The notes under the pieces: generated by a model
Databases searched by the model: none
What the model saw: only the letters and a program-made list of their open reading frames with translations
Told to the model about the DNA's origin: nothing
Part shown: piece by piece, positions 183-21,585 of the stretch
Layout: every line of letters begins with the position of its first letter
Position numbering within the stretch: position 1 is the stretch's first letter
DNA from: Minisyncoccia bacterium
Lineage (GTDB): Bacteria > Patescibacteriota > Minisyncoccia > Phycocordibacterales > UBA9973
Assembly (NCBI GenBank): GCA_039809245.1
Contig: JBDHUP010000003.1
Coordinates: forward strand, 41,069-105,068
Direction: 5' to 3'
DNA length: 64,000 nucleotides
Program-made: the position numbers and the translations under genes

Positions 183-1802
183 TTATTTAATCGCGTCTAA
201 TTGGAATGAGAAAGTAGATCCCTTACCCATACCTTCTGAAGTCACATCTACTGTGCCTTTATGAGCTTCGATAATTTGTTTAGCGAGATATAATCCGAGC
301 CCAGAACCTCCTGTGTTCATACGAGCGCCATCACCACGTGCGAATTTTTGGAATAGAGTTGCCTTTATTTCCGGTGTCATACCCATACCAGTATCTTTGA
401 CAGCAAACATAACCTTGTTTCCAGATTTTTTAACAGATACATTTATACTCCCTCCTTCAGGTGTATATTTTATAGAATTATCAATAAAGTTTAGAACTAC
501 TTGGCGAATCTTTTCCCTATCACCATTTACAGTACACTCTTCATCTTTATCTGATTCAAAGTTAAGCTTTAATCCTTTTTGCGAAGCAGTGATAGAAAGA
601 TCTTTAGACATATCACGTGCTATTTCTGAAAGAGAAAATGGTGTCATTTCATACTTCATACCACCGCTTTCAATCTTTGAAACGTTAAGGAAGTCTTCAA
701 CAATCTTGGTTAGATTCATAGTTGACTGGAAAATACGCTCAACTGCTTCTTTGGCTTTTGGATTAACTTCTCCGAAATCCCCTTCGATAATCATAGATGA
801 ATACCCCTTCATTGCAGTAAGTGGACTCCTAAGCTGATGTGAAGCAAGCGACAAGAATTCTGTTTTTAATTTATCCAAATCTTTAAGTTTATCATTAGCA
901 TCTTCAAGCTTTAAATTTGATTCCTCTAGTTTCATCCTTAATATTTCTAACCTTTCTCTCTGCTCAACTTCTTTTAATACACTTTTTACCAGAAGAACAC
1001 TTAAGAAAAGAAATGTTACAAAAAGAATTATGTTAAATATAAATTGAAAAGTTGTTTGAGAAAGGAAAGTTTGCACTAATGTAGCTGAAAGTAAAATAAA
1101 AGCCATTATTTCTGTAGCAAATGCTTTTACATTTAGTAGTCTATATTTCATAATTGAATAAGCTATACCGACAATTGTTGGTATCATAAACGCAGGTCCA
1201 TATAAAATAAATGAAGAATTACCTGTTGTATTTATGAGAATAAAATTTGTAGCAATAAGAAGTACATAGCTTGTAATAAATCCTATAAGCATAACTTGCC
1301 AACTTCTCTTCTCTTTTTGACTAGCATTAAGATATTTTTTAACAATTTCAAATATACTAAGCAAAAGAAGTCCAATTACAAATACAGCAAAAATAGGAAT
1401 AAGTTTGCCAGGGACAGGAACTGAGACTGATCCAACTAATCTAAGACTACTGAAAACACTTGGAGAGAGAGTCAGCCCCATAACTATTAATCCCAGTGTT
1501 CCAACAATAATGATCATCTTTTTTGAAATGATAAGATTTTGATTTGGAAAATTTTTAACAAAAAAGTAAAAGAAAACTATATGTGGAACAGCGAAGAAAA
1601 GGACTAATCTTGCCCAGAAAATTTGATCGACAAATATTGGATTGAGGGAAAAGTAATTTGCAAACGACCATAAAACAGTAGAAAGGCTTATGGCTTCGAA
1701 AAATCTGTTTGATACGCTTTTTCTATCATGATATACAGTAATGATACCTATATATAAAATGGCAAAACTTGCTATTAATGTAAAAATAAAGCCTGTATTC
1801 AT
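183..1802 (-). CDS. sensor histidine kinase, polytopic membrane N-terminus, HisKA + HATPase_c
   Basis: About 7 predicted TM helices in the N-terminal half, then a coiled coil. H-box LASHQLRSPLTAMKGY; N-box NFIDNSIKYT; G-boxes DTGMGM and GGSGLGLYLAK. No response regulator is adjacent. Confidence 0.85.
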   Translation of the reverse strand: MNTGFIFTLIASFAILYIGIITVYHDRKSVSNRFFEAISLSTVLWSFANYFSLNPIFVDQIFWARLVLFFAVPHIVFFYFFVKNFPNQNLIISKKMIIIVGTLGLIVMGLTLSPSVFSSLRLVGSVSVPVPGKLIPIFAVFVIGLLLLSIFEIVKKYLNASQKEKRSWQVMLIGFITSYVLLIATNFILINTTGNSSFILYGPAFMIPTIVGIAYSIMKYRLLNVKAFATEIMAFILLSATLVQTFLSQTTFQFIFNIILFVTFLFLSVLLVKSVLKEVEQRERLEILRMKLEESNLKLEDANDKLKDLDKLKTEFLSLASHQLRSPLTAMKGYSSMIIEGDFGEVNPKAKEAVERIFQSTMNLTKIVEDFLNVSKIESGGMKYEMTPFSLSEIARDMSKDLSITASQKGLKLNFESDKDEECTVNGDREKIRQVVLNFIDNSIKYTPEGGSINVSVKKSGNKVMFAVKDTGMGMTPEIKATLFQKFARGDGARMNTGGSGLGLYLAKQIIEAHKGTVDVTSEGMGKGSTFSFQLDAIK

Positions 1803-1803
1803 A

Positions 1804-3249
1804 TTAATTCTTCTTTACCCAATTATGCTTTGATTTCCTTGTGATAAATTTTTCATGACCAAATGGTACTAACTTTATTACTGGCAGGGCTTTCTCGTGT
1901 ATAGAATTATAAAGTTTTCTGTATTCTGTATTTAGTTCAACTAGATGTTTTAATATTGATTCAGAAATAATTTTATTAGTTTTTTCTGATACGGATACAT
2001 GTTGTTTTAATTCAATCTCTATGTTAAATATTTGTTCTCTAAAGTCACTAGACTGTTCTACTTGAACTATATACTTACCAGTTACTAGCGGAATAACTTC
2101 ATCATCTTCAAGACCAGCCTTTATGTTTTCAGGATAAATATTTAATGCATAGAAAGTAACCAATACATCATTCCTACCTTTAAGTATTAGTATTGAACCT
2201 TTCCATTTGTTTATATACTTTTTTATCTCGCTGTTGTATCCATGTCTCTTAAGTATCGCTTTAACTTGAGTTTGCGATAAAAGAGTTCCATGGTCCTTTA
2301 TATTATATCTAATTAATGGAATACCTGCCATTGCTGTGAAAACTAATTCACCATTTATTATTTCAAAATACGTTTTATGAGGATAATACATAACGGTTGT
2401 TGGAATGAACGACATTGGTCCATACAGTTCTTTTTTTAAACTTGTATCTTTAAGTGATAATTTTCTTAGTGTTATTGTAAGTGGAGTTTCGTGACCTATT
2501 GCTCCTGCATCAGCAGTACCATATATAGATATAGTACGAAATTCATCTTTAGGAGTATGCGTGATTTTATGAACTAATTCACGCCATTTTTCTGAAAAAT
2601 TCTCACCTGCAAGTATAAAATACATGTCCAACTTCTTGAAATTTACACCAGTAGCTTCTGCGTCAACAATGATATCCATTAAAAAAGGTGGGTATCCGAA
2701 TAAAATTAATGAATCAAAACCTTCTGTAAAATTCTTAAGCACTGATATAGTATCATTTACATCTATCCCAGGAGTTATAACGGTAATTTGAAATCCCTTT
2801 TTCCTTGCAACTTCTCTTATTGACGCCAAGGTAAATGTGCCTGCTATCCAGTTCCCCATAGAAAAACATATAACTACAAGTACCTTTTTGCCTTTTAATT
2901 TAAAGATATCTTGCAATATAATATTATGAAAAACTCCACCCCAAACTTCATGTTCATCATCTCGCGGCCAATAGAATGGCTGTCCTGAAGATCCAGAACT
3001 AGCAGAAATCATCGCTGGTACCTTATTATTAGGTAGCAAATCAGTAAAATTATGAGCTCTTAGGTAATTATTTTTGTCGGTAATTGGTAATGTTTCAAAG
3101 GCTTCTCGTGTTTTTATTAAGTTTGGTTTGATACCATATTTTTTAAGAAAATCTCTATAAGCTTTTACTTTTTTTACTGCAAATGAAAATGTTTCTATTG
3201 GTAAAAATTGTGATTTATTTGTGTTTTGCTTTTTTCTTTTTTTGTTCAT
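1804..3249 (-). CDS. adenylate-forming enzyme, phenylacetate-CoA ligase (PaaK) / coenzyme F390 synthetase-like family
   Basis: P-loop-like SSGSSGQP (compare TSGTTGKP of PaaK-type ANL enzymes). The 481 aa length and motif spacing fit the PaaK/F390-synthetase/CapK clade. One-nt gap to the downstream HK; 35-nt overlap with the upstream dehydrogenase. Confidence 0.55.
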   Translation of the reverse strand: MNKKRKKQNTNKSQFLPIETFSFAVKKVKAYRDFLKKYGIKPNLIKTREAFETLPITDKNNYLRAHNFTDLLPNNKVPAMISASSGSSGQPFYWPRDDEHEVWGGVFHNIILQDIFKLKGKKVLVVICFSMGNWIAGTFTLASIREVARKKGFQITVITPGIDVNDTISVLKNFTEGFDSLILFGYPPFLMDIIVDAEATGVNFKKLDMYFILAGENFSEKWRELVHKITHTPKDEFRTISIYGTADAGAIGHETPLTITLRKLSLKDTSLKKELYGPMSFIPTTVMYYPHKTYFEIINGELVFTAMAGIPLIRYNIKDHGTLLSQTQVKAILKRHGYNSEIKKYINKWKGSILILKGRNDVLVTFYALNIYPENIKAGLEDDEVIPLVTGKYIVQVEQSSDFREQIFNIEIELKQHVSVSEKTNKIISESILKHLVELNTEYRKLYNSIHEKALPVIKLVPFGHEKFITRKSKHNWVKKN

Positions 3250-4288
3250 ATATTTTCTGTTCAGCTAATTTATTTGCAATTTCAAGAGGTGGAAGATCTA
3301 ATTTTCTAGATGAGACTATAAGACTCTTAACAGTTTTACCTATTGCGTCTACTCTTTTATCTACACGACTCTTATTGTAACCTTTCTTATCGAGTTCATC
3401 AACAATATGTATGAGGCCACCACTATTTACAACATAGTCTGGTATATAACAAACCCCCATCTTATGAAAGACTTCTGCAAGAGAATCATCCGCTAGTTGA
3501 TTATTTGCACCACCTATAATGACTTTAGATTTTATTTCACTTATATTCTTTTTTGTAAATTCATTACCAAGAGCGCACGGCATGTATACATCCACAGGAA
3601 ATTTATGAATATATTTAGGGTTTACCACTGTAACATTAGGAAATCTTTTTTGTATATACTGAACTTTCTTTTTATCTATATCTGATATATAGATTTTAAC
3701 TCTATCTTTATATAACAATTTTACTAAACCCTCTCCTATTTTTCCGAGACCTTTAATAGCAACTGATATATCTTTCTTCTTTTTATTTTTAAAAAATAAA
3801 GGTGCTGCAGCCCATAATGATACATAAATACCTAATGATGCTATTTCAGAGGTAGTTCTTTTATTTCCGTTACCTTTTAGTATATATGGTGTATGTTGTG
3901 ACATAAAAATAACATCAGAATCAGAAATACCAACATCTGTACCAGTTGTATATTTACCTTTAAATGAATCTATAACTTTTGCATATGATCGTAAGAGTTC
4001 AGTTTTTTTCATTTTCTGGTTCGCAATAATTACTGTTTTTCCTCCACCGAAAGGTATCCCAGATATAGCACATTTGTAACTCATTGCTTTTGATAACCTT
4101 AATACATCAGTTAATGCTTCATTTTCTGATTTATATGGATATAATCTTGTTCCACCAGTGGCAGATCCAGGTCTGATATTATGCCAAGCTGAAAAACCTT
4201 TAAGGCCTGATGCTTTATCTTCAAAACGAAATACTTGTTGATGCTTATCAAATGCTTTGTTTTTCGATACGTTAATTTTCTTAATCAT
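3215..4288 (-). CDS. Glu/Leu/Phe/Val dehydrogenase family, leucine/phenylalanine dehydrogenase-like
   Basis: N-terminus FEDKASGLKGFSAWHNIRPGSATGGTRLYPY plus the catalytic-lysine motif IPFGGGKTVI. NAD Rossmann GLGKIGEGLV. 357 aa, typical LeuDH size. Confidence 0.8.
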   Translation of the reverse strand: MIKKINVSKNKAFDKHQQVFRFEDKASGLKGFSAWHNIRPGSATGGTRLYPYKSENEALTDVLRLSKAMSYKCAISGIPFGGGKTVIIANQKMKKTELLRSYAKVIDSFKGKYTTGTDVGISDSDVIFMSQHTPYILKGNGNKRTTSEIASLGIYVSLWAAAPLFFKNKKKKDISVAIKGLGKIGEGLVKLLYKDRVKIYISDIDKKKVQYIQKRFPNVTVVNPKYIHKFPVDVYMPCALGNEFTKKNISEIKSKVIIGGANNQLADDSLAEVFHKMGVCYIPDYVVNSGGLIHIVDELDKKGYNKSRVDKRVDAIGKTVKSLIVSSRKLDLPPLEIANKLAEQKIYEQKKKKAKHK

Positions 4289-5366
4289 ATTTATTTACAG
4301 AAGTACCGTCCAACTTTATTTCGTATCTTCCAGATTTTAGGTCTTCATTTAATAAAATTTTCTTAGCGAAATGTGTAAGCGCTGCTCCACGTAGGAAAGA
4401 TGATTCAGCTACTTGTGGAATGCTAGCAATAGTCAAACCAACTTCATCAAAAGATGAGTTTAATTTACTATCTAAATACTCTTTACCCATAAAGTCTTGC
4501 AGAAGTTCTACTCTATCTCTAAAAGTCCCTTCTCCTGGTTTGATAGATTCAATTTTTGAAATTACTTCATCTTTTAAATATCCAGATAAAAGGGGTAAAT
4601 CACCATCTTTATCGTAACGCTCCACATCTATAATGACATGGTCACCACTACCAGTAACCATAAGTACTGGTATTTTTAATTCTCGAGCCATTTCACGAAT
4701 CTTTATTTTATACCTAAGATTATCCATTTCTTCAATAAGAAGATCAACTCTTTTATCACCTAAAAACATCTCGATATTTTCATCTGTTATACCTTTTTCA
4801 AACATATCTATTTGCACAAATGGATTTATTTCATACATTTGCCTTGCAGATATATATGCTTTATTTATATTAAGATCAGTAAGCCCAGCACGAAATCTAT
4901 TTAAATTTGAGACCGATAATGGGTCAAAATCGGCAAGCTTCATATGTTCACCAATTCCTTCAAGAGTAAGGCAGACGGCTCCAGGGTTTCCCACGTTAAG
5001 GCCAGCTATAGCTATTGTTTTATTCTTTAGAATTTCTTGTTCTCTTTCTGTAATAAGATTTTTATTACGTGACATGCGTAATTTTTCATACTTATCTCTA
5101 TCTAAAATACGCACAGCTGTATTCTTCCAAGCAAAATATATCCAAACTCCTTCTTTATCGCTAACTTCTGGTATATCTGGATTAGTTAGGGCTTTGTGTG
5201 AAATTAAACTGGGATCCTCCACTAGAGATAACTCGTGTTTCTGATCTGCTAACGTATCTATTTTTGTAATTGATTTATTAACACTGCAAAGATCATTAAA
5301 AAGATCCATTTCTTCTTTTATAGAGCAATTAAATATTTTAGGTTTAAATTTTATATCATTATTCAT
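4281..5366 (-). CDS. ThiF/MoeB/HesA-family E1-like adenylyltransferase with ~110 aa N-terminal extension
   Basis: KTIAIAGLNVGNPGAVCLTLEGIG, a Rossmann with degenerate G-loop. LADFDPLSVSNLNRF (compare DxDxVexSNLnRQ). ARQMYEINPFVQI and VDLLIEEMDNLRYKI (compare DlVvDatDN). No CxxC zinc motif. Confidence 0.8.
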   Translation of the reverse strand: MNNDIKFKPKIFNCSIKEEMDLFNDLCSVNKSITKIDTLADQKHELSLVEDPSLISHKALTNPDIPEVSDKEGVWIYFAWKNTAVRILDRDKYEKLRMSRNKNLITEREQEILKNKTIAIAGLNVGNPGAVCLTLEGIGEHMKLADFDPLSVSNLNRFRAGLTDLNINKAYISARQMYEINPFVQIDMFEKGITDENIEMFLGDKRVDLLIEEMDNLRYKIKIREMARELKIPVLMVTGSGDHVIIDVERYDKDGDLPLLSGYLKDEVISKIESIKPGEGTFRDRVELLQDFMGKEYLDSKLNSSFDEVGLTIASIPQVAESSFLRGAALTHFAKKILLNEDLKSGRYEIKLDGTSVNKYD

Positions 5367-5368
5367 AA

Positions 5369-6346
5369 TTATGTGATAATTTTTTTCTCTATTGGATGAC
5401 GTGGAGTGACTCTATGGTCACCCTTTATTTCACCAATAGCAAACATAAACTGAGGTCGATCTTTTGTATTTACTACTTGTTGAACTTCTCTATATAAGTC
5501 ACCCATTTCGATTGAACCCACATAAATAGAAGTCTGTAAGCCTTGAGATTGTGCGCGTAGCATCAGTCTCTCAGCAAGACGACCAACATTTATCCAAGTT
5601 TCTTTTGTATTGGGACCAGAAATAACTGAAATAAGTGGAGCTGATGAAAGACTTTCTAAATTCTTTTTACCCAATATTCGGCCTACATTAAAAAATCTAA
5701 TCAAAATAGGAATAATTAACGAAACAACTAGAGGCATCTTTAGAGAATATCCTGGAAGTCCTTGTTTTTTGCTTGAAAGATTACTATTCATCCAATGATA
5801 CATTTCTTTTCTAAATGCAATACTTTTATAAGCCAAGAGCATAGCACGCTGTGTTAGAAGTGCTACATTCTTAATCTTTTCTTTATCTTCAACCAGAGTT
5901 AGATCGATACTAAATTGTTTAAAATTTACAACTTCTCCAAGTAGAGCTGTTTGAATATCATTACTCACAAGATTTGATTCAAAAATTCCTCTCGCGTTAA
6001 CACGTGTCAGTATAGTATCAAATAACAGTTTATCTTTTAAAGATATTGGAACTGAAATATTATTCAATGCTATAACTGCAACTTTATGAAGACTATCATC
6101 GATAGAAATTACTATCTCAGCTTTAAAACCTAGATTCGAAGCAGCTAAAGATAAATTCTCTAACATGCAACCCATACTTATGAATAAATCGCGACCTTCA
6201 CTATCGGCTTGAGGCAAAAATAGGTCAGGGTTGTAATAAACTTCTATAACATTATCTGTAATTTTAAAAAGCCATGGCTGGCTGTTGTGAGTAGAAGGCG
6301 CCCTTGTGGCGAGCGTTAGGATTTCTAGGATTTTAGTCTTTTCCAC
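5369..6346 (-). CDS. nitroreductase-family FMN oxidoreductase with large central insertion (SagB/McbC-like size)
   Basis: LATRAPSTHNSQPWLF (compare APSxxNxQPW). C-terminal LSSAPLISVISG...GLQTSIYVGS core. 325 aa with a ~100 aa insert containing a hydrophobic stretch. Three-nt gap to the E1-like gene. Confidence 0.75.
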   Translation of the reverse strand: MEKTKILEILTLATRAPSTHNSQPWLFKITDNVIEVYYNPDLFLPQADSEGRDLFISMGCMLENLSLAASNLGFKAEIVISIDDSLHKVAVIALNNISVPISLKDKLLFDTILTRVNARGIFESNLVSNDIQTALLGEVVNFKQFSIDLTLVEDKEKIKNVALLTQRAMLLAYKSIAFRKEMYHWMNSNLSSKKQGLPGYSLKMPLVVSLIIPILIRFFNVGRILGKKNLESLSSAPLISVISGPNTKETWINVGRLAERLMLRAQSQGLQTSIYVGSIEMGDLYREVQQVVNTKDRPQFMFAIGEIKGDHRVTPRHPIEKKIIT

Positions 6347-6402
6347 ACATACATTATAACATTCAGTGTTTATTAAGTATAGTTCTAAACTTTAATAATA
6401 AA

Positions 6403-6431
6403 TTGCAAAATAAACCTATTTTTTGTACTAT
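6403..6431 (+). promoter_or_regulatory. sigma70-like promoter TTGCAA-N17-TACTAT ending 6 nt before the agmatinase ATG (leaderless-type)
   Basis: ttgcaa at 6403-6408, 17-nt spacer, tactat at 6426-6431, ATG at 6438. No room for an SD. Confidence 0.4.
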
Positions 6432-6437
6432 ACGTAA

Positions 6438-7328
6438 ATGACTAAATCCATTTTAAATGAAAAAAATACAGAAAATGCTGATGTAGTAATAGTAAGTGCA
6501 GCATATGAAAAAACAGCTTCTTCTAGAAAAGGTACTATTGATGGGCCGAAAGCTATACTGAAATGTTTGGATAATAAACTTGAATTTTTTGATCGTACTT
6601 ATAAATGCGAAGTTAATAACTTTCTGAAAGTTGCTGAGAAGGATCTAGGAAGAATAAGTAAACTTAGTCCTGAAAAAGCATTAGAGAAGATTACAGAAGA
6701 ATGTGAAAAACTAGTAAGCGCCGGAAAGTTCGTATTTTTGCTTGGCGGTGAACACTCAGTGTCACTTGGTCTTTTCCAAGCACTTGCAAAGCACATAGAC
6801 CCTAAAGACACTACAATAGTACATATAGATGCTCATTGCGATCTTCGTGATACAGATGACGACTATAGCGACCATCCATCTAAATACGCTCACTCTTGCG
6901 TTTTGCATCGAGGTAATGAGCTTGGGTATAAACTTGTCCAAGTTGGAATCCGCACATACTCTGTAGATGAGTATAACTACTTCAGTGACCCAAAGAATAA
7001 TATTACTGTATTCGAATGGGGCAATGGGAATAAAGTTCCAACAGTAGAGGAAGTATTAGCATCCATAACAACTAAAAATATATATCTGACCATCGACGTA
7101 GATGGCTTTGACCCTGCTTATATGCCAGGAACTGGTACACCAGTCCAAGGCGGGCTTGAATGGTGGTATGGAATGGAACTAATCCAAAAGCTTGTAACTA
7201 CTAAAAATCTTATCGGTGCAGATATAGTAGAAGTTTCCCCTATGCGCGATTCAGTTCTAACTGAATACGGCGCAGCTCAACTTTGCTATACAATCATCGC
7301 AAATAAATTTAGAGATAAACTTAAATAA
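6438..7328 (+). CDS. speB: agmatinase / ureohydrolase (arginase family)
   Basis: Mn-binding motifs GGEHSVS, HIDAHCDLRD and TIDVDGFDP, then SPMRD. 296 aa. Confidence 0.8.
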   Translation: MTKSILNEKNTENADVVIVSAAYEKTASSRKGTIDGPKAILKCLDNKLEFFDRTYKCEVNNFLKVAEKDLGRISKLSPEKALEKITEECEKLVSAGKFVFLLGGEHSVSLGLFQALAKHIDPKDTTIVHIDAHCDLRDTDDDYSDHPSKYAHSCVLHRGNELGYKLVQVGIRTYSVDEYNYFSDPKNNITVFEWGNGNKVPTVEEVLASITTKNIYLTIDVDGFDPAYMPGTGTPVQGGLEWWYGMELIQKLVTTKNLIGADIVEVSPMRDSVLTEYGAAQLCYTIIANKFRDKLK

Positions 7329-7376
7329 AAAAAGGATAGCATACATGCTATCCTAACTTTTAATCTTAATTCTTGA

Positions 7377-7877
7377 TTAAAGAATATCTAATACTTTTAC
7401 CTGCTGAATTGAACTTCCTACCTGTAGTGAAAATGATTCATTTTTTTTCTTTCCAAGAAGAGCCATACCTAAAGGAGAGCTGGGTGTGATACAGATTAAT
7501 TTCTGACCCTCATACTCAATTTTTATACCAGACCCGCCAGGAAGTAAAAAATAATTTTCGTTGGTTGTGCTTTTCTTTTGAATAACAATTATTGCACCTA
7601 ATCTTGATTCAGTCATTGGGCCAAGCTTAGTGGAATTATCTGAATCAAATCTTCTCAAAAGATTCAGTTCATCAACCTTGTTATTGAATGCCTTATGTGC
7701 AACATCTACTACTGCAGTAAGTTGTGATCTTGTAGTGTCACTATGGGACTGCATTGCACCAGGCGCATCGTTGATGGCGCTATTCGTACCAGTTAATGAT
7801 TCACCCAGAGATTTTACCCTCTGATTTAGAGATTCAATGGCTTTAGATAGTATTGCTCTTTTATCCAAGTTTTTCAT
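7377..7877 (-). CDS. GreA/GreB-family transcript cleavage factor-like (divergent N-terminal coiled coil)
   Basis: C-terminal FKBP-like domain ITPSSPLGMALLGKKKNESFSL (compare VSxxSPIGRALIGKxxGDxV). The N-terminal coiled coil lacks the canonical acidic-tip ENAEY signature. Confidence 0.55.
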   Translation of the reverse strand: MKNLDKRAILSKAIESLNQRVKSLGESLTGTNSAINDAPGAMQSHSDTTRSQLTAVVDVAHKAFNNKVDELNLLRRFDSDNSTKLGPMTESRLGAIIVIQKKSTTNENYFLLPGGSGIKIEYEGQKLICITPSSPLGMALLGKKKNESFSLQVGSSIQQVKVLDIL

Positions 7878-7985
7878 TTTCTTTAATTTTTTAGTTTGAT
7901 CTATTATAGCAGTAATATACTAAATGTCAATATCACTCCATAAAAATTTTCATATCTTTAGATTATTATGTTATAATATAGAAAT

Positions 7986-8558
7986 ATGCAGAAAGAAATT
8001 GAAGCAACTTTTCTATCAGTTAATAAAGAATTAATTAGAGAAAAACTTGAAAATAATGGATTTAAATTAAAATACCCTGAGTATTTAATGAGAAGAAAAA
8101 CTTTTGATTTCCCGAATAAAACCCCTGGTATCAATAAATGGGGACGTGTAAGACAGGAATTCAATAAAGTTACCATGACAATAAAAGAGATGAGGGGAAC
8201 TGGTATAAATGATGTTTTCGAAAGTGAAATTATCGTTAATGATTTCGATAAAGCTACTGAATTCTTTGAAGCATGTGGTGTTTTCATGAAAGCATTTCAG
8301 GAAAATATGCGTGAAGTATGGACTAATAGTACAGTAGAAGTAACCATAGATACATGGCCTGGATTGAAACCGTTTATAGAAATTGAAGGTCAGACGGAAG
8401 AAATAGTAAGAAATATATCAGAGAAATTAAATTTTGATTTTAAAGAAGCTGTTTTTGGAAGCATAGATTTAGTATATGAAAAAGAATTAGGAATTTCAGC
8501 AAAAGAAATCATTAGTATGCCAGAAATTACATTTAAAAATCCTCCTAAATCAAAATAA
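7986..8558 (+). CDS. CYTH-domain protein (class IV adenylate cyclase / triphosphate tunnel metalloenzyme-like)
   Basis: N-terminal EIEATF (compare EIExKF of CYTH). Alternating acidic/basic beta-strand pattern. 190 aa. Confidence 0.6.
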   Translation: MQKEIEATFLSVNKELIREKLENNGFKLKYPEYLMRRKTFDFPNKTPGINKWGRVRQEFNKVTMTIKEMRGTGINDVFESEIIVNDFDKATEFFEACGVFMKAFQENMREVWTNSTVEVTIDTWPGLKPFIEIEGQTEEIVRNISEKLNFDFKEAVFGSIDLVYEKELGISAKEIISMPEITFKNPPKSK

Positions 8559-8590
8559 AAACAAGGCGTCAAAATTGATGCCTTGTTATT

Positions 8591-9541
8591 TTAGATGATT
8601 ACATTACCTTTTTGAATTTCATTAACTGTTGGGCTGTTTATAAAATCCGTCCAAGGGATAAGTACATCTGTCGTCTGTTTATAAATACATATACGTACAT
8701 AATACTCGTTCATTATACGTTCTACTCTAACTCCATAGAATCCCTCATAGCACTTATCCTTTGCAGGACAATTGCTACAAATACTATTTAAGTAATATGG
8801 AAAAGCTATTTTAACAGATAGAATTTTGCCTTCAGAAGTAATATAGCGATTGGTGACATTAGAACTACCAGCTCTTTGATACCCGTTAATTTTAGAGGCA
8901 CCAAGATTTTTTAGTATATCTTCAATCACTTCCTGGCTTTCAAATGGTTCAACTAGATTATTTAATAACCTAATTTCCGGAACTCTGTCTTTTTGCAAAT
9001 TTAACAATGTTTTTACAGATTTTAACGTTTTATCAAAGTCACCATAAGCAACGATGTTAATTCTTGAATCTATACCACTTTCTACGATATTCTTAACATT
9101 ATTAAACTGGTTTTCCAAAGCATTTTCCGCCCATGATAAATTCTTCTTAACAGATTCCAGGCTTAGTAAGTCTTTGGCAGATGTATCGTGAATGCTGACA
9201 ACAACTTTTGTAAGACCAGCATTCTTGAATTTGCTCCACTCGTCGACTGAGATTTTTTTTATGCCATTTGTAGTTACAGAGATTTCATCGGACAATTTAC
9301 TTAATCCTGAAACAATAGACATAAACTCAGGGTGTATGGTAGGCTCTCCTCCGGTTAGCATTATTCGGCCTATGGCTGTCTTTTTCATTATCTGATCTAT
9401 ACAGTTGTAGAAATCATCATTAGGTATAACGTTCTTGATATTTTTCATATCTCCTTCTTCATGACAAAAAGAGCAAGTACGGTTACACGTGCCAGTCAAT
9501 TTTATTCTAATTGCTGGCATAGTTATGGTCATGTTTTCCAT
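8591..9541 (-). CDS. radical SAM enzyme, MoaA-like (GTP 3',8-cyclase family) / viperin-like
   Basis: CNRTCSFC (CxxxCxxC). MLTGGEPTIHPEF (compare MoaA RLTGGEPSL). VTTNGIKK (compare VTTNGyrL). AGLTKVVVSIHDTS (compare GLtginvSvDSLD). C-terminal CSNCPAKDKC auxiliary cysteines. Confidence 0.75.
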   Translation of the reverse strand: MENMTITMPAIRIKLTGTCNRTCSFCHEEGDMKNIKNVIPNDDFYNCIDQIMKKTAIGRIMLTGGEPTIHPEFMSIVSGLSKLSDEISVTTNGIKKISVDEWSKFKNAGLTKVVVSIHDTSAKDLLSLESVKKNLSWAENALENQFNNVKNIVESGIDSRINIVAYGDFDKTLKSVKTLLNLQKDRVPEIRLLNNLVEPFESQEVIEDILKNLGASKINGYQRAGSSNVTNRYITSEGKILSVKIAFPYYLNSICSNCPAKDKCYEGFYGVRVERIMNEYYVRICIYKQTTDVLIPWTDFINSPTVNEIQKGNVII

Positions 9542-9556
9542 TTTTTACTTTTTAAA

Positions 9557-10168
9557 TTAAAGATATTGTTTTACTCCATGAAATATACTTACTAAATCTA
9601 ATGATTCAGAATTATATTTATAAATTTGGAAAAGTGATTTATTTTGAACTTCTTCTATAAAAGGATATATCCTTTGGTTAAAAAGTTTCATCCTTTTATT
9701 AAATTCATTCTCATTAGTGTCGTCTCTCTTGAGCATTTCCTTATTATGAATTGGGCAAAGATCTCCTATCAATCCAGGGAAATTACAAATTGGGCAAACT
9801 ACTCTGCCAAAAAATCTTTTTCTTAAAATTTCTTCAGAAGCTTCAAGATATATACCAAAAATAATGTTGTATCCTTTTGAGAGTTCTGAATACTCTATTT
9901 CAGATATTGGATACCCTGAGATACTAGCTAATGGTTTACTACAATCATAATGGTTATTAATAAGCTTAAGATCGTCATCAGGATTTATTGGTAGATTTTT
10001 ATCAATGTTGTATTTTAGATTTTTCCCCAAAATTGATTCCTTTTGAATTTCTTCTCTTTTTATATCCCCAAATGATATATATGGTAATCCGAATTCTAAT
10101 TCTATTTTTTTGCCAAGAGAGCTTTTCCCAGAGGAGGTGTTTCCTAGGATTATAACTAGCTTTTTCAT
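9557..10168 (-). CDS. adenylate kinase-like NMP kinase with Zn-finger LID
   Basis: P-loop GNTSSGKSSLGKKI. LID RFFGRVVCPICNFPGL...CPIHNKEMLKRDDTNENEFNKRMKLF (compare AK GRRxHxxSGRxY...RxDDxxEtvxkRL). Sixteen nt upstream of the rSAM gene. Confidence 0.65.
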   Translation of the reverse strand: MKKLVIILGNTSSGKSSLGKKIELEFGLPYISFGDIKREEIQKESILGKNLKYNIDKNLPINPDDDLKLINNHYDCSKPLASISGYPISEIEYSELSKGYNIIFGIYLEASEEILRKRFFGRVVCPICNFPGLIGDLCPIHNKEMLKRDDTNENEFNKRMKLFNQRIYPFIEEVQNKSLFQIYKYNSESLDLVSIFHGVKQYL

Positions 10169-10225
10169 TGTATTTATTTTTTAAAGGGTTAGACTAATTT
10201 GATACTAATTTAACCACGAAAAATA

Positions 10226-10262
10226 AAATAAAGCAAGGGGTTGCTTGCCTTGCTTTATTTTA
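10226..10262 (-). terminator. hairpin terminator downstream of the DHS-like gene
   Basis: aaataaagcaagg / ccttgctttattt 13-bp stem with a 9-nt loop, flanked by A/T runs. Confidence 0.5.
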
Positions 10263-10274
10263 AACTTAATATGA

Positions 10275-11294
10275 CTATTTACTATACTTTTCTATTACTT
10301 TATTCGCCTCGTCAGGATTTGCTTTACATTCTAGGAGCGCAGTAAGCATCAAAGGTACTACGATAGTAGCATCAGATTCAATGACGAACATTGGAGTGTC
10401 TTTGGTAAGCTTATCCCAAGTAATCTTCTCGTTTGGAGTTGCTCCTGAGTATGAACCGTATGATGTGGTAGAGTCGGATATCTGACAGAAGTAAGCCCAA
10501 GGCTTCGCTTCTTGCTCCATATCGTACTTAAGAGATGGAACTACACATATAGGGAAATCCCCAGCGATACCTCCTCCGATTTGGAAGAATCCAATTCCCT
10601 CTCCACTTGAGAGTTCTTGATACTGATCGTAGAAAGCTCCCATGTATTCGATACCAGACTTTGCAATAGATGCACTTGCGTCACCCATCTTCACATGAGA
10701 AGCAAAAATATTTCCAAATGTTGAGTCTTCATATCCAGGTACAACTATTGGAAGGTTCATCTCGGCTGCTGCAAGTAACCAGCATTCATCAGCATTACCT
10801 TCGTGAGCTTCTTTATCTAAAGTCTGAATAAGATCATAGAAGTATTCATGCCAGAACTTGCGAGTACCTTCCTCTGTGGCTTTCTTCCAGACTGGAACTA
10901 TATGCTTCTCAACTGCTCGAAATGCTTCGTCTTCAGGAATACTAGTATCAGTCACTCGGCGCATACGATTCTCTAGAATCTTTGTATCATCTTCCTTTGT
11001 AAAGTATCTGTAATCAGGAAAATCTTTATAGCTATCATGAGCAACTAAACGGAAAAGTGACTCCTCAAGGTTCGCACCTGTCACAGACATACCGCTTATA
11101 AGTCCTGCACGGATTGCCGGAGCAAGGACAATGCCTAGCTGAGCAGAACTCATAGCTCCAGCTACAGCCCAGAACATCTTGCCTCCCTTCTCTGCATGAC
11201 GCCAGTACGCTATAAGTGCATCTCGAGTAGCACGAGCATTAAAGTTCTTGTAATTTTTTAATATAAATTCTAGTGTTGAAAGATTTTTTTGCAT
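10275..11294 (-). CDS. deoxyhypusine synthase-like protein (DHS / homospermidine synthase-like)
   Basis: 339 aa. DHS-family signatures FWAVAGAMSSAQLG, GANLEESLF and IGGGIAGDFPI, plus a NAD-binding glycine-rich C-terminal lobe. Confidence 0.7.
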   Translation of the reverse strand: MQKNLSTLEFILKNYKNFNARATRDALIAYWRHAEKGGKMFWAVAGAMSSAQLGIVLAPAIRAGLISGMSVTGANLEESLFRLVAHDSYKDFPDYRYFTKEDDTKILENRMRRVTDTSIPEDEAFRAVEKHIVPVWKKATEEGTRKFWHEYFYDLIQTLDKEAHEGNADECWLLAAAEMNLPIVVPGYEDSTFGNIFASHVKMGDASASIAKSGIEYMGAFYDQYQELSSGEGIGFFQIGGGIAGDFPICVVPSLKYDMEQEAKPWAYFCQISDSTTSYGSYSGATPNEKITWDKLTKDTPMFVIESDATIVVPLMLTALLECKANPDEANKVIEKYSK

Positions 11295-11336
11295 AAAGTT
11301 ATTTTAGCATTTTATCAATATGTAGCAAATTATAAA

Positions 11337-12716
11337 TTACCATCCAAAACCCTTACCGACATCATCAGGAGATTCGCGCTTACGAGCAACTACGATGTGC
11401 CCATTCTCAGCGATTAACTTAAGTGGAGATGAGAGCATGCAGTGGTGCATAGCAAGTGGATCTTGATAAGCCCCTGTATCGTAAACGACAACATACCTAG
11501 GCTCACCTGTTGCACTGTCATAGTCTGGTAAGGTTACAGTACCATCTATACCTGTATATATATCATCTGAATCACAGCTAGAACCAGCAAGCCATACATC
11601 TGTGAGGTCGCCATCGTGCTTATTATTTGCTGGTGAGACTGCCCATTTCTGACCTATAGCCCAAGTGTCGAGAAGATCATTCATAAAGCTTCCATCAATA
11701 ACGTACCACTTCTTCGCAGGACTCTTCTTGTTTGTGATTGCTTTCGTATCGATAATCTTGAAAACTGTTATCTGAGCTGGGGCTACGATGTAGCGACCCC
11801 ATTCACAGATTAGGTTTGGGTGTGATAGTCCTCTTTTCTCTGACTCTGTTTTTATAAGCTTTAAAATTTTCTCCATTAACTTATTCACTGGGTAGCTCTT
11901 GCTACGAGTGTAAGGTATCGGCATACCACCTCCGATATCTAGAGTATCGAGTGATGGATTCTTCTCCTTTAGTTTAAAGTAGACATCGAGCGCATATTTA
12001 ATCGGACCCATAACATCTGAAAGCTTCTCTATCTGTGAACCTATATGGTAATGCAAAATCTTAAGATTCTTAAATGAACCCATTTCAATGATTTCTTTTG
12101 CTGAGAATCCGAAGCGGTCAATCGGCTTGTTCCAGTATGAGCTTGCCTTGATCGGCATATCTAGACGAATACCAACGTCGTACTTGGAATATTGTAAAAA
12201 CTTAAGTTCATTTGGTCCTTCGATAAGTGGAAAGATTTTCACTCCTTTGTGCTGAAGGTCATCGATAAGGGAAATATATTTATCAGTCTTCGGTCCTGAG
12301 CATAGAATGCGAATGTTTGGATTGAAAGTCTCTTGCTCGAGCATCTTCTTCACAAGCCAAAGATCGTTATATGAAGAAGTCTCAAGATGTGCCCCTTCAC
12401 CGACTATAGCCATCACAACCTCCTTGTTCTGGTTTACTTTCATCGGATAGTGGTAGAAGAACTTGCCTTGATATTTGACCTTCTTTGATAAATCTTTAAC
12501 TAAGTCTAAGAAGTCCTCAAGACGCTCTTCAATAACAAAAGGCATCAGTATCTCAAGTGAGGTACCGAATTTCTCAGCCATATAGCGGACATTATAAATA
12601 TTGTGACCTTCCTTTATGATAAGGTCGCCATCTTTATTGAAATCAAAATATTGAGTATTAAATTCCTCTGCACCAATCTTCCAAAGCTTCTTTGAAGCGA
12701 CAGAACGTTTAGTCAT
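11337..12716 (-). CDS. speA: PLP-dependent decarboxylase, SpeA-type biosynthetic arginine decarboxylase-like (fold III)
   Basis: PLP-lysine motif FFYHYPMKVNQNKEVV (compare SpeA YFLVYPIKVNQ). LDIGGGMP glycine loop. N-terminal YNVRY (compare SpeA YNVAYW). 43 nt upstream of the DHS-like gene. Confidence 0.7.
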   Translation of the reverse strand: MTKRSVASKKLWKIGAEEFNTQYFDFNKDGDLIIKEGHNIYNVRYMAEKFGTSLEILMPFVIEERLEDFLDLVKDLSKKVKYQGKFFYHYPMKVNQNKEVVMAIVGEGAHLETSSYNDLWLVKKMLEQETFNPNIRILCSGPKTDKYISLIDDLQHKGVKIFPLIEGPNELKFLQYSKYDVGIRLDMPIKASSYWNKPIDRFGFSAKEIIEMGSFKNLKILHYHIGSQIEKLSDVMGPIKYALDVYFKLKEKNPSLDTLDIGGGMPIPYTRSKSYPVNKLMEKILKLIKTESEKRGLSHPNLICEWGRYIVAPAQITVFKIIDTKAITNKKSPAKKWYVIDGSFMNDLLDTWAIGQKWAVSPANNKHDGDLTDVWLAGSSCDSDDIYTGIDGTVTLPDYDSATGEPRYVVVYDTGAYQDPLAMHHCMLSSPLKLIAENGHIVVARKRESPDDVGKGFGW

Positions 12717-12815
12717 TTCATTACATCAAGCAAGACTTCCTGCCTGTGATAAATATTAATAAAGCCATAATAACAAACTGTGAGGATATGTAAAGGGTTT
12801 TAGTAAATAAACGAA

Positions 12816-12857
12816 AAGAACCTAATCCTCTACTATTGATAGAGAATTAGGTTCTTA
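12816..12857 (-). terminator. hairpin terminator
   Basis: aagaacctaat...attaggttctt 11-bp outer stem with an inner ctcta/tagag stem, T-rich 3' side on the minus strand. Confidence 0.45.
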
Positions 12858-12862
12858 TTTTG

Positions 12863-13075
12863 TTATTTAGTTAGATCCTTTGTTGTTAAGTAATACCATA
12901 GAAGTTTTGGCCAACCAAAAATTGTCTTAATTCTTTCTTTACGGCTTGGATGATCACCATCTGATAAACTTAGTAAAAATCCTATTCCTAAATAAATTGT
13001 TACTGCTATACATAGAAGTAATATTGCAAGAATTAGTAATATTTTAACTTCCATACTGGTTAGTAATATAATCAT
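12863..13075 (-). CDS. hypothetical small membrane protein
   Basis: 70 aa ORF with one long hydrophobic segment LLILAILLLCIAVTIYLGIGFLL. No recognised motif. Confidence 0.3.
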   Translation of the reverse strand: MIILLTSMEVKILLILAILLLCIAVTIYLGIGFLLSLSDGDHPSRKERIKTIFGWPKLLWYYLTTKDLTK

Positions 13076-18311: not shown

Positions 18312-18662
18312 TTATTCGGTAATTGTTAAGCGCTTCATCATTAAAGGGCGTAGTTTGTTTGTCGGAAGCATACCGTAAACAGCAAGCTCGTATAGACCCT
18401 TCCAACCTTTCTTATCTACTATCTTCTGATTTGTCTTCTGTTTAAATCCACCTGGGTAGCCAGAATAAGTCTCATGAAGAGTCTCAGTCATGCGGCGCTC
18501 TGACATTTTTGTCTTTGCTGCATTTGTTATATAAACTCGAACATCAGCGACTTGGTTCGCTACATATTCCGGTGAATTCTTACCCATAAGAGCCTTGGCT
18601 GCAGCACTTGCTACTCTTCCAAAAGTCTTACCACTTGCGTCAATTGTATGTGTTGTTGCCAT
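18312..18662 (-). CDS. rplM: 50S ribosomal protein L13
   Basis: THTIDASGKTFGRVASAAAKALMGKN...PGGFKQ. Short 116 aa form. Confidence 0.85.
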   Translation of the reverse strand: MATTHTIDASGKTFGRVASAAAKALMGKNSPEYVANQVADVRVYITNAAKTKMSERRMTETLHETYSGYPGGFKQKTNQKIVDKKGWKGLYELAVYGMLPTNKLRPLMMKRLTITE

Positions 18663-18666
18663 AATA

Positions 18667-19020
18667 TTATATAAATTCGATTACTGCCATTTTACTTGCA
18701 TCACCTGCACGACGTGGGAGCTTAGTAATACGTGTATATCCACCTGCTTGACCTTTATATTTCGGAGCAATAGTGTCTATAAGTTTACTTGCTTCTGCTG
18801 TTAAATTATAAAGTCTTGAAATAACTAAGCGTCGTGATGCAAGTGTACCGACATTTGCCTTTGTTACAAGCTTCTCTATAGCAGGGCGAAGTTCTTTAGC
18901 TTTTGCTTCAGTAGTCTCGATACGACCATGCGCAATAAGAGAAAGCATTAAACCTTTAAGTAAAGCTTCTCTCTGATTCTTTGTTCTTCCAAATTTTCTT
19001 ACTACGCTGTGGTGTCTCAT
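18667..19020 (-). CDS. rplQ: 50S ribosomal protein L17
   Basis: MRHHSVVRKFGRTKNQREALLKGL...GGYTRITKLPRRAGDASKMAVIEF. Confidence 0.9.
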   Translation of the reverse strand: MRHHSVVRKFGRTKNQREALLKGLMLSLIAHGRIETTEAKAKELRPAIEKLVTKANVGTLASRRLVISRLYNLTAEASKLIDTIAPKYKGQAGGYTRITKLPRRAGDASKMAVIEFI

Positions 19021-19042
19021 AAAATATATACTGAATTATTAA

Positions 19043-20023
19043 TTATTTAAGTGTTATACCATACCCACCAAGAACTTTCTTGATTTCCTGGATGCCTTTA
19101 TCGCCGATACCTTCTATCTCAAGTAAGTCTTCCTTCTTCTTTCTTGCGATACCTCCGATTGTTCTAATGTTTGCACCTGTTAGAGCATTAAGAGTGCGGG
19201 TTGAAAGATCTAGAGTATCAATGCGAGTCTTTAGGATATCAGTAAATTCATTACCATCGCCTTTTGACTTAGTATCCTTCTCTTCGTCTGCAGACTCAGA
19301 TTCAACGGCTTCTTTTGCCATAGACTTTGAAAGTATTGTAAATCCAACAATGGCCTGTAATTGTTCTACCATAATTGTAATAGCTTGTTCAAGTGCCTCG
19401 CGTGGAGAAAGAGTTCCATCTGTTTCAATAGTCATACGTAAACGGTTGTGGTTAGTCTTGTCACCAACGCGCATATTCTCTACTTCATATGACACACGAC
19501 GAATCGGAGTGAATATTGCATCAACTGCGATCATTCCTACATCTGTCTTTGTTTTCTGGTGAACGTCTTTTGATACGAATCCAAGACCTTTCTCAACAGT
19601 CATCTCGATAGAAAGAGTATTCTTACCTGTAACTTCAGCAATATATAAATCTTTGTTTAAAACTTCAACCTGACCAGATACTTCGATATCTTTAGCAGTT
19701 ACTGTCTGTGGGCCTTTAATTGAAATTTTTACAGTTTGAGGTTCATCACTTAGTAGTCTGAAGCGAACCTGCTTTAAGTGAAGAAGTATTGTTATAACAT
19801 CTTCTTTAACTCCATCGAGTACTGAGAACTCATGATCAGCACCTTCAATCTTAAGTGAAGTTATAGCAGCACCAGTAAGAGAAGATAAAATGATACGACG
19901 AAGTGAATTACCTAGAGTATGTCCATACCCAGGGTAAAGGCCGTCGATCTCGTAGACACCTTTTGTGTCTACTTCAGAAACGATAGATAACTTTGATGGT
20001 AATATTATATTTAAATCAGTCAT
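19043..20023 (-). CDS. rpoA: DNA-directed RNA polymerase subunit alpha
   Basis: Sits between rpsD and rplQ. N-terminal dimerisation domain and a C-terminal helix-hairpin-helix domain (...LDLSTRTLNAL...IRTIGGIA). Confidence 0.9.
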   Translation of the reverse strand: MTDLNIILPSKLSIVSEVDTKGVYEIDGLYPGYGHTLGNSLRRIILSSLTGAAITSLKIEGADHEFSVLDGVKEDVITILLHLKQVRFRLLSDEPQTVKISIKGPQTVTAKDIEVSGQVEVLNKDLYIAEVTGKNTLSIEMTVEKGLGFVSKDVHQKTKTDVGMIAVDAIFTPIRRVSYEVENMRVGDKTNHNRLRMTIETDGTLSPREALEQAITIMVEQLQAIVGFTILSKSMAKEAVESESADEEKDTKSKGDGNEFTDILKTRIDTLDLSTRTLNALTGANIRTIGGIARKKKEDLLEIEGIGDKGIQEIKKVLGGYGITLK

Positions 20024-20082
20024 ATGATATGTAAAGCTCGCGAGCTAAAATTATTTTAATAAAAATTAACCGTTGCGCACTA

Positions 20083-20691
20083 TTAACGACTATAAAATTC
20101 AAGCACAGTGTTAAGGTCTAAAAATCCTTCAATATTTTTTGGTTTACCTTGTACTACTCCAGAAAGTTTCTCAGCATCGAATGTCAACCAGTTTGGTAGT
20201 GTATATTCTTTTAATTTCTTTGCCATATCTGCAAATAAAGGACTCTTCTGACTTCCAGGACGAACAGCGATTACATCGCCTACTTTCACTCGTAATGATG
20301 CTACTGTTGTCTTCTTTCCGTTGACTGTGATGTGCCCATGAGAGACCATCTGACGAGAAAGTCGGCGTGTGTGAGCAAGGCCCAAACGATAAGTAACATT
20401 ATCAAGACGAGTTTCTAATAATTCGAACAAATACTCAGTTGCAAGTGTACCTTTATGAGCAACAGCTTCGTTGATATAATTTGAAAATTGCTTTTCACTG
20501 ATTCCATACATAAAACGCACCTTCTGCTTCTCAACGAATTGAAGAGCGTAACCAGAAAGAGCTTTCGGACGCTTGTTCTTTGAATTCTTTGCGTGGCGAG
20601 CTTCAGACATTACGAACTTAGGTGTTTGACACTTTTCAAACACTCCTGATCCTAAACGTCGACACATTTTATATTTTTGAACTGTTTTCAT
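20083..20691 (-). CDS. rpsD: 30S ribosomal protein S4
   Basis: KMCRRLG...[51 protein letters not shown]. Confidence 0.92.
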   Translation of the reverse strand: [202 protein letters not shown]

Positions 20692-20710
20692 ATGAAATAA
20701 ATTATATTAA

Positions 20711-21160: not shown

Positions 21161-21204
21161 TTTATATAGTTAGATAATTTAAATACTCACCACTCTGATT
21201 AATC

Positions 21205-21585
21205 CTATGTCTTCTCAGCCTTTCTTCGTCCACTACCCATAGTCTTACGTACATTTCCACGGACAGTTCTAGAGTTCGTCTTTGTTCGTTGGCCACGAGC
21301 TGGGAGTCGGCGCATATGTCTGACTCCTCTATATGTCTTGATATCTTTTAATCTTTTGATGTTTGAAGCAATTTCACGCTTTAGATTTCCTTCTATAGAC
21401 ATTGCTTCGATGATCTTACGAATTTCGTTCTCTTGATCTACTGTTAGAGTATCTGCTTTAACTTTTGGATCAATATTAACTTCCTTAAGAATAGAACGAG
21501 CACGTGAAAGACCAATACCGTAAAGAGATGTAAGTCCTATGTCTAAATGTTTGTTGTTTGGGATTGTTATACCGAGTATTCTCAT
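21205..21585 (-). CDS. rpsM: 30S ribosomal protein S13
   Basis: MRILGITIPNNKHLDIGLTSLYGIGLSRAR...GVRHMRRLPARGQRTKTNSRT. Confidence 0.93.
   Translation of the reverse strand: MRILGITIPNNKHLDIGLTSLYGIGLSRARSILKEVNIDPKVKADTLTVDQENEIRKIIEAMSIEGNLKREIASNIKRLKDIKTYRGVRHMRRLPARGQRTKTNSRTVRGNVRKTMGSGRRKAEKT

Follow-up and report, generated by a model that had tools for sequence, protein, structure and literature searches.

What is made by a radical S-adenosylmethionine (SAM) enzyme (rSAM) that is encoded together with a CYTH protein, a nucleotide kinase and a Gre-like protein? This question is raised by a 64-kb stretch of DNA from a Minisyncoccia bacterium of the Patescibacteriota (GenBank assembly GCA_039809245.1, contig JBDHUP010000003.1, positions 41,069 to 105,068), here called the window; coordinates given below are window positions unless a locus identifier is given. 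A preliminary description of this DNA had grouped the CYTH, rSAM and kinase genes as a nucleotide-centred trio without a molybdenum cofactor (Moco) pathway, and all three open reading frames (ORFs) were found at the positions reported for them. The three genes are indeed linked, but the trio is not the whole unit, as a fourth member, the Gre-like gene, had been overlooked. The reading that we favour, with moderate confidence, is that the four proteins constitute a conserved nucleotide-centred module that makes or processes a modified nucleotide.

The functional linkage proposed in the preliminary description is supported by the distribution of the genes. A locus scan with one genome per species gave 58 loci, and addition of loci fetched later brought the number of rSAM loci available for the CYTH count to 63. 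A CYTH gene was present within 5 kb of the rSAM gene in 59 of these 63 loci, in most cases on the same strand and at a distance below 100 nt. As the two genes are neighbours in so many loci from several phyla, their adjacency is far beyond chance. The rSAM-CYTH loci include those of Patescibacteria, Nocardiopsis, Nocardia, Streptomyces, Saccharothrix, Actinoplanes, Shimazuella, a Melainabacterium and Bacillus cereus megaplasmids. A divergent gene for an XRE-family regulator lies near the pair in 31 loci, mostly those of actinomycetes. ORF calling in the high-G+C actinomycete loci was naive and included spurious antisense ORFs (e.g. cluster 2), and the hidden Markov models for accessory genes were built partly from the same loci; only loci L059-L074 and the precomputed Pfam labels served as independent checks. 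In the window, the rSAM and CYTH genes are convergent, as previously stated, with a 32-nt spacer between them that holds a 12-bp hairpin. The weight formerly placed on the kinase-rSAM pair belongs elsewhere, as the universal core is rSAM-CYTH and the kinase is an accessory of changing type confined to Patescibacteria.

The rSAM protein matches Pfam family PF04055 (E = 1.2e-16) and lies below every NCBIfam cut-off. Its translation includes the motifs ascribed to it earlier, namely TCNRTCSFC (C19, C23 and C26), LTGGEP, VTTNG and the C-terminal Cys residues C255, C258, C264 and C285. The best match by curated model, PDB sequence profile and fold is MoaA. Nevertheless, the score with TIGR02668 is 92.7 bits against a cut-off of 325, and that with TIGR02666 is 76.3 against 284. 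The AlphaFold2 (AF2) model, with a predicted local distance difference test (pLDDT) score of 90.8, had MoaA as its best Foldseek match, with a template modelling (TM) score of 0.6 to 1TV7/2FB2. The viperin model NF038283 gave 41.6 bits against a 180-bit cut-off, and the prokaryotic viperin (pVip) models of PADLOC matched only residues 11-165, which correspond to the generic rSAM core.

MoaA is defined by a GTP site that includes Arg17, Arg266 and Arg268, a C-terminal GG motif that triggers SAM cleavage, and an auxiliary cluster bound by three Cys residues (CX2CX13C) with an open Fe site (PMC12625886). Only the first of these features is retained in rSAM, where R12, the equivalent of Arg17, is invariant. 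Arg266 corresponds to position 260 (A in the window protein, I in the consensus) and Arg268 to position 262 (D in the window protein). None of the rSAM homologues aligned has a C-terminal GG; their C-termini are variable, and the window protein ends with ...KGNVII. The first two Cys residues of the auxiliary cluster align with those of MoaA, MoaA Cys278 located just after FYG is V or I in rSAM, and two other Cys residues, C264 and C285, are invariant in the rSAM family. The family thus has four conserved auxiliary Cys residues (CX2CX5C...C), as compared with three in MoaA, and its partner is a CYTH triphosphatase, whereas that of MoaA is MoaC. Shared with MoaA are the N-terminal CX3CX2C cluster, the TGGEP and TTNG motifs, the Arg17 equivalent, the C-terminal CxxC...GFYG auxiliary region and, probably, a barrel that binds a nucleoside triphosphate (NTP).

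Invariant in the rSAM family are C19/C23/C26, E29-G30, TGGEP, TxNG, K244, C255xxC258x5C264xEGFYGxR272 and C285, as well as S116, N162 and R191, which together with TxNG line the barrel. The family signature can be written as CX3CXFC-H-x-E-G, TGGEPTxHP, TxNG, K244, CxxCx(4-7)CxEGFYGxR and a last Cys. A word-indexed search returned ~76 homologues from Patescibacteria with 33-97% identity, followed by a drop to E = 1e-7. When 1.84 billion representatives were searched exhaustively with a profile, only 142 clusters were obtained at E<=1e-30. No curated model covers this family. As judged by sequence, rSAM is a member of a small separate family within the MoaA/twitch clade, distantly related to MoaA, and is neither MoaA nor viperin. 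The earlier label 'MoaA-type' is hence appropriate for the nearest relative in sequence and fold, but not for the score cut-off, Arg266 and Arg268, the GG tail or the position of the third auxiliary Cys.

The CYTH protein encoded in the window has no Pfam match and only a weak match to TIGR00318. However, its identity as previously given is confirmed, as a CYTH profile matches the solved archaeal triphosphate tunnel metalloenzymes (TTMs) 1yem, 2dc4 and 7ns8 with E = 1e-14 to 1e-17 (best 1.7e-17) and the catalytic residues are all present. E4, E6, R54, R56, E79, R109, D122, E132 and E134 are invariant. The tunnel set ExExK, RxR, K, ExE, R, D and ExE is complete and invariant, save for the Lys of ExExK, which is Thr (T8) in the Parcubacteria form. 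Class IV adenylate cyclases (CyaB) are recognised by an HFxxxxExExK motif, a small residue in place of the first Arg of RxR, and replacement of the second Glu of the C-terminal ExE (PMC8233210). In the present protein only three residues precede E4, leaving no HF, and R54, R56, E132 and E134 are all invariant; the score with the cyaB model is 22.2 against 57.95 bits. The protein is thus predicted to be of the triphosphohydrolase (TTM) type and not a class IV cyclase. Like SaTTM and the archaeal and bacterial TTMs, it has the CYTH fold residues, RxR and ExE, lacks the cyclase HF motif, and is predicted to hydrolyse the terminal phosphate of inorganic triphosphate (PPPi) or an NTP. It differs from these enzymes in that ExExK is ExExT in the Parcubacteria form, and in being genomically tied to an rSAM, a tie that was found described for no TTM.

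CYTH is the most conserved member of the module. Between locus L001 and the window, the CYTH proteins are 68% identical, the rSAM proteins 46%, the kinases 39% and the Gre-like proteins 25%. A CYTH search gave 476 proteins at E<=0.001, and the best 120 of the 476 are 66-73% identical, except one at 97%. In Saccharibacteria (L007:6442-8160, L012 and L014), CYTH is followed in the same operon by a conserved 572-aa protein with a faint N-terminal match to a GHMP/galactokinase signature.

Least expected among the members of the module is the Gre-like gene. In the window it is arranged divergently to the CYTH gene, and among Patescibacteria it adjoins rSAM in 17 of 18 loci, in varying order and orientation. 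The product passes the Pfam cut-off for the GreA_GreB C-terminal domain (30.8 against 26.9 bits), and its score with the greA model is 27.2 against 139 bits. The AF2 model (pLDDT 84) consists of a helix (residues 6-37), a loop and a second helix (46-79), which together form a long antiparallel coiled coil, and a beta domain thereafter. Foldseek matched it to GreA, RNA polymerase-bound Gfh1 and GreB over the full length with a TM score of ~0.53. Thus, the coiled-coil N-domain and the C-terminal globular domain of the Gre architecture are both present, and this full architecture, together with the match to structures of GreA and of RNA polymerase-bound Gfh1, is what the protein shares with GreA, Gfh1 and Rnk. 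It differs from them at the tip, where the invariant NDAPGAMQSHSDT replaces the GreA acidic pair D41/E44, and in being encoded with or fused to rSAM. The tip, N36-DAPGAMQSHSD-T48, comprises 13 residues that are invariant (alignment A3) in an otherwise ~50% identical protein. Two Gre-like subtypes were distinguished, gre5, and gre13 with the tip QSSETWHDN; the nearest model to gre13 is that of Rnk ('nucleoside diphosphate kinase regulator').

The kinase had been described as a P-loop nucleoside monophosphate (NMP) kinase with a Zn-finger LID, and both the P-loop (G9-NTSS-GKS) and the knuckle (C125-P-I-C128 ... C138-P-I-H141) are present. It passes the broad Pfam adenylate kinase (Adk) domain PF00406 (44 against 26.8 bits, E = 3.3e-11), but with the adk model TIGR01351 it scores only 63.7 against 168 bits. 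In addition to the P-loop GNTSSGKS and the knuckle residues C125/C128/C138/H141, the LID residues R122, R148-D149-D150 and R159 are kept. In contrast, the residues of the Adk AMP site are replaced, Thr31 by F33 and Arg88 by I88 (GFPRT to GYPIS), and both changes occur in all four rSAM-linked orthologues (window, L001, L003 and L064). Since the AMP-binding Arg88 and Thr31 are replaced, the acceptor is probably not AMP.

Of 18 distinct Patescibacteria loci, 14 have a kinase gene beside rSAM, and none of the actinomycete loci does. The kinase family follows the rSAM subfamily (see below): type A is accompanied by an Adk-like kinase, types B and D by a Tmk-like one, and type C by one of AAA_17/18. 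The kinase stop often overlaps or abuts the rSAM start, indicating translational coupling, with start/stop overlaps in L061, L063, L064 and L073; in the window the two genes are separated by 15 nt (9542-9556) and not by 16 nt as first stated. No other adk was found in the 64-kb window. The altered NMP site and the presence of other kinase families at this position in other lineages speak against a housekeeping adk whose location is fortuitous.

In L069 (5770-6327), the usual kinase position is occupied by a gene of the PduO-type cobalamin adenosyltransferase family, members of which release inorganic triphosphate, a TTM substrate, from ATP. In L073 (3124-7480), an rSAM-Gre fusion and CYTH have a series of nucleotide-related genes beside them, which encode a response regulator, a Crp-type cNMP-binding regulator, a NUDIX protein, a protein with an ASCH domain and a further three kinases of AAA_18/AAA_33.

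At least four subfamilies of rSAM were recognised. Type A includes the Parcubacteria proteins, among them that of the window, type B those of Saccharibacteria and Woesebacteria, and type C those of actinomycetes, with a conserved ~30-residue insert after the first cluster motif, together with some from Saccharimonadales. The Saccharimonadales proteins (L004, L052 and L073) are 46-50% identical to the actinomycete ones (L006-L058) and ~30% identical to those of other Patescibacteria, and they share the insert, which suggests gene transfer between Saccharimonadales and actinomycetes. Saccharibacteria are epibionts of actinomycetes. Type D (L061:8608-9618, L068:4607-5614 and L069:4611-5615) is circularly permuted, with the cluster-binding segment at the C-terminus. 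The first residues of these proteins directly precede the GGEP-like motif, and the C-terminal segment reads PLRLTVTPxCNFNCRAPGxxxGWCxEEPGE, i.e. CX3CX9C; their Pfam and NCBIfam matches start at model positions 28 and 40. Type D was found on three independent contigs, each time adjoining the same 70%-identical CYTH.

Fusions of rSAM to Gre-like proteins occur in two independent combinations. In one (P0279), a type B rSAM is joined to the C-terminal half of a gre5 protein and a Tmk-like gene follows, and in the other (P0318), a type C rSAM is joined to the C-terminal half of a gre13 protein, the latter being the half that best matches the Rnk model, and the gene is flanked by those for an AAA_17 kinase and CYTH. 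One further protein (P0246, L070:740-2839) has rSAM fused to an N-terminal TIR and NUDIX-like region, with a histidine-phosphatase-like gene upstream, and in another (P0243) rSAM is fused to a SorC-type sugar-phosphate-binding domain. In six proteins of 920-1320 aa (P0297, P0313, P0344, P0350, P0361 and P0364), rSAM domains akin to the present family form tandem arrays of three or four.

On two Bacillus cereus megaplasmids, the pair forms part of an operon that encodes an ATP-grasp protein, rSAM, CYTH, a hypothetical protein, a second ATP-grasp protein and a major facilitator superfamily (MFS) transporter. This operon, located in L066 (plasmid NZ_CP063160.1, 149179-155743), resembles a gene cluster for the synthesis and secretion of a peptidyl-nucleoside-like compound. 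Its hypothetical protein has 405 aa and a faint alanyl-tRNA-synthetase-like match, and a cyclodipeptide synthase/P450 pair is present ~5 kb upstream of the operon. Enzymes of nucleoside-antibiotic synthesis are among the nearest comparisons; the Bacillus cereus locus has ATP-grasp ligases and an MFS exporter, whereas the Patescibacteria loci lack exporter and tailoring genes. The oxetanocin system OxsB/OxsA and the twitch rSAM enzymes AbmM and BlsE involve rSAM chemistry on a phosphorylated nucleoside, and OxsB is paired with a phosphohydrolase; AbmM and BlsE are also among the Foldseek neighbours of rSAM. Unlike OxsB, the rSAM described here has no B12 domain, and its phosphohydrolase is CYTH and not an HD enzyme.

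Taken together, these observations lead to the following proposal. The rSAM would bind a nucleoside 5'-triphosphate in its MoaA-like barrel, a substrate suggested by that barrel, by the residue equivalent to Arg17 and by partners that have the handling of nucleotide phosphates in common, and would carry out SAM-dependent radical chemistry on the ribose or the base, with a fully Cys-ligated auxiliary cluster possibly serving electron transfer. CYTH would then hydrolyse the triphosphate of the product or released inorganic triphosphate, and the kinase would make or re-phosphorylate the nucleotide. The Gre/Rnk-like factor may link the product to the RNA polymerase secondary channel as a co-regulator, a delivery device or a means of self-protection. 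A modified nucleotide or nucleoside is the probable product, which would serve for signalling, for inhibition or, in Bacillus, as the scaffold of a natural product. Other partners that handle nucleotides favour the module, namely NUDIX genes near the pair in 19 loci, the TIR-NUDIX-rSAM fusion and the fusion of rSAM to the SorC sugar-phosphate domain. A more specific version is tentatively put forward, in which an rSAM associated with or fused to the Gre/Rnk-like factor makes a modified NTP at the mouth of the NTP-entry channel, the kinase and the TTM triphosphatase set its level, and the product is a signal or inhibitor directed at transcription, with the Gre-like factor as its receptor, delivery device or immunity factor.

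Several points weigh against a nucleotide-modifying module. An NTP as the rSAM substrate is drawn from homology and from the partners, and several of the top structural neighbours of the rSAM model (SkfB, SuiB, anSME and PqqE) modify peptides and not nucleotides. The four conserved Cys residues could ligate the auxiliary cluster fully, so that the substrate would not be bound there as GTP is in MoaA. A ~70% identical CYTH is encoded in L059 and L067 with no rSAM beside it, so that CYTH may serve a housekeeping function of its own. Neither a Gre-like gene nor a kinase gene lies near the pair in actinomycetes and Bacillus, and the link to RNA polymerase may therefore be lineage-specific. Finally, the Gre-like gene could encode the only Gre factor of the cell; no second greA was found in the 64-kb window. 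A 348-aa gene beside the lone CYTH in L059 was considered as a hidden rSAM and was ruled out on reading its sequence.

Of the other explanations, one that works like pVip deserves the most attention, although we consider it unlikely. Here, the antiviral agent would be a chain-terminating or otherwise toxic NTP analogue made by rSAM from substrate that the kinase supplies, and CYTH, NUDIX and the Gre-like factor would limit self-damage. The preliminary description saw a pVip signature in the kinase-rSAM pair, and the logic of that comparison stands, as an rSAM presumed to act on NTPs adjoins nucleotide kinases of varying type, to which it is coupled, and is patchily distributed. Among actinomycetes the contexts vary even within a genus, the presence of a type C homologue in Saccharimonadales points to horizontal transfer, one rSAM is fused to a TIR and NUDIX-like region, and PADLOC gives weak matches to the pVip core. 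Transcript cleavage by Gre factors could also remove terminators, but the Gre-like tip lacks the D41/E44 cleavage pair. Membership of the viperin family fails by score, and the rSAM considered here has an auxiliary Fe-S cluster domain, an obligate TTM triphosphatase partner and a Gre-like link that set it apart from pVip. No component belongs to any PADLOC system, and the Patescibacteria module lies among housekeeping genes. No close phage homologues were found, with no phage-family match in PHROGs and only generic rSAM folds in BFVD, and CYTH is ~70% identical across hundreds of lineages, unlike fast-evolving defence genes. In IMG/VR, the pair is present on only one contig, L074 (IMGVR_UViG_3300048999_000166, 122 kb), and is of the actinomycete type. 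The contig is classed as viral, but its G+C content in the 13 kb covered is 65%, which is actinomycete-like; either a prophage or a piece of chromosome wrongly classed as viral may be involved. Somewhat more doubtful still is post-translational modification of the Gre-like factor by rSAM, e.g. at the coiled-coil tip, the module then serving to mature a specialised secondary-channel factor. The two independent fusions, the invariance of the 13-residue tip and the peptide-modifying twitch/SPASM enzymes among the structural neighbours all suit this explanation. However, the universal partner is CYTH, and rSAM-CYTH loci of actinomycetes, Bacillus and Melainabacteria have no Gre-like gene; the tip motifs differ between the two Gre-like subtypes, and no role is left for the triphosphatase, the varying nucleotide kinases and NUDIX.

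Three further possibilities appear very improbable. Were the adjacency incidental, the kinase would be the housekeeping adenylate kinase, the Gre-like protein an ordinary GreA, and CYTH a general triphosphatase near an orphan rSAM. The lack of a second adk or greA in the window and the occurrence of CYTH alone in some relatives agree with this, but the span of the rSAM-CYTH adjacency over phyla, the translational coupling and gene fusions, the other kinase families at the same position and the loss of the Adk residues R88 and T31 in all four rSAM-linked orthologues do not. Hardly more credible is that the pair provides a different path from GTP to a 7-deazaguanine or pterin precursor, with CYTH removing triphosphate like QueD/PTPS and rSAM acting like QueE. 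It is suggested by L065, where queH and queA flank the pair, and by weak QueE-like matches; however, queuosine genes flank the pair in only one of ~70 loci, no folE or queC is linked, and the QueE scores (31.9 against 260 bits) are generic core matches. The least probable is that rSAM is a genuine MoaA (GTP 3',8-cyclase) that starts Moco synthesis. MoaA is the best match among NCBIfam models, PDB sequences and folds, and Joint Genome Institute (JGI) auto-annotations name homologues MoaA. Against this stand the scores far below both MoaA cut-offs, the replacement of Arg266 and Arg268 (A260 and D262), the missing GG motif and a third cluster Cys off the MoaA position. Moreover, as stated in the preliminary description, the window holds no other molybdopterin genes, with none of moaC, moaD, moaE or moeA found in the 64 kb or next to any homologue.

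The features of the locus are collected in Table 1.

Table 1. Genes and local signals of the rSAM-CYTH locus (window positions).
Feature	Position	Strand	Remarks
Gre/Rnk-like RNA-polymerase secondary-channel factor	7377-7877	-	166 aa; Pfam, AF2 model, Foldseek
Sigma-70 consensus promoter TTGACA-16-TATAAT with TG	7903-7930	-	upstream of Gre-like gene; 12/12 match; consensus match only
Promoter-like site TTCATA-17-TATAAT with TG	7949-7977	+	upstream of CYTH gene
CYTH/triphosphate tunnel metalloenzyme (TTM), predicted triphosphohydrolase	7986-8558	+	190 aa; catalytic residues, profile match
12-bp G+C-rich hairpin, T-runs on both strands	8560-8587	.	bidirectional terminator-like
Two-cluster ('twitch'-type) radical SAM (rSAM) enzyme	8591-9541	-	316 aa; PF04055
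Adk-like P-loop nucleotide kinase, Zn-knuckle LID, altered NMP-acceptor site	9557-10168	-	203 aa; PF00406
Terminator-like hairpin between upstream DHS-like gene and kinase	10230-10251	-	upstream boundary of kinase-rSAM unit

An Rfam scan of positions 6000-13000 found no riboswitch and no other RNA family. Polyamine genes flank the module without being conserved with it. The genes for agmatinase (6438-7328), a deoxyhypusine synthase (DHS)-like protein (10275-11294) and arginine decarboxylase (ADC, 11337-12716) were rejected as members, as they are not near rSAM in other loci, and a terminator-like hairpin parts the DHS-like gene from the kinase. The DHS-like protein is below all cut-offs, with a homospermidine biosynthesis protein as its best match, and the ADC gene encodes a short protein like arginine/diaminopimelate (DAP) decarboxylases. 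The ThiF and nitroreductase genes (4281-6346) were also rejected, being syntenic only in the close relatives L061 and L062. They belong to a group of five genes on the minus strand (183-6346) that encode an Acg-type nitroreductase, a ThiF/E1-like protein, a Glu/Leu/Phe/Val dehydrogenase, a PaaK-like adenylating ligase and a seven-transmembrane (7TM) histidine kinase, and that recur in another order in L061/L062. The nitroreductase and the ThiF/E1-like protein together resemble a split Rv1355c. Elsewhere in the window (18312-22029), a ribosomal-protein/rpoA/infA cluster is without the usual secY-adk-map upstream of infA, and a 492-aa ORF and a PilM/FtsA-like ORF are present in its place.

A nucleotide-modifying rSAM enzyme accompanied by a kinase is already known as a general kind. 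New here are the partnership with a TTM and with a Gre-like protein and the circular permutation of one rSAM subfamily, and a literature search for a link of CYTH, TTM, class IV cyclase or GreA with radical SAM found nothing relevant. The rSAM enzymes that rewrite nucleotides, such as MoaA, viperin, OxsB and AbmM, have each opened an area of biology, from cofactors to antiviral chain terminators and antibiotics. The family described here is small, sharply bounded and tied to a triphosphatase in several phyla; as it occurs in actinomycetes amenable to genetics and on Bacillus cereus plasmids, its product is accessible to experiment. The link to a Gre/Rnk-like factor and the two independent fusions suggest that in Patescibacteria, with their reduced genomes and poorly understood regulation, RNA polymerase is reached by way of a small molecule, and the module could give Rnk-type factors a function.

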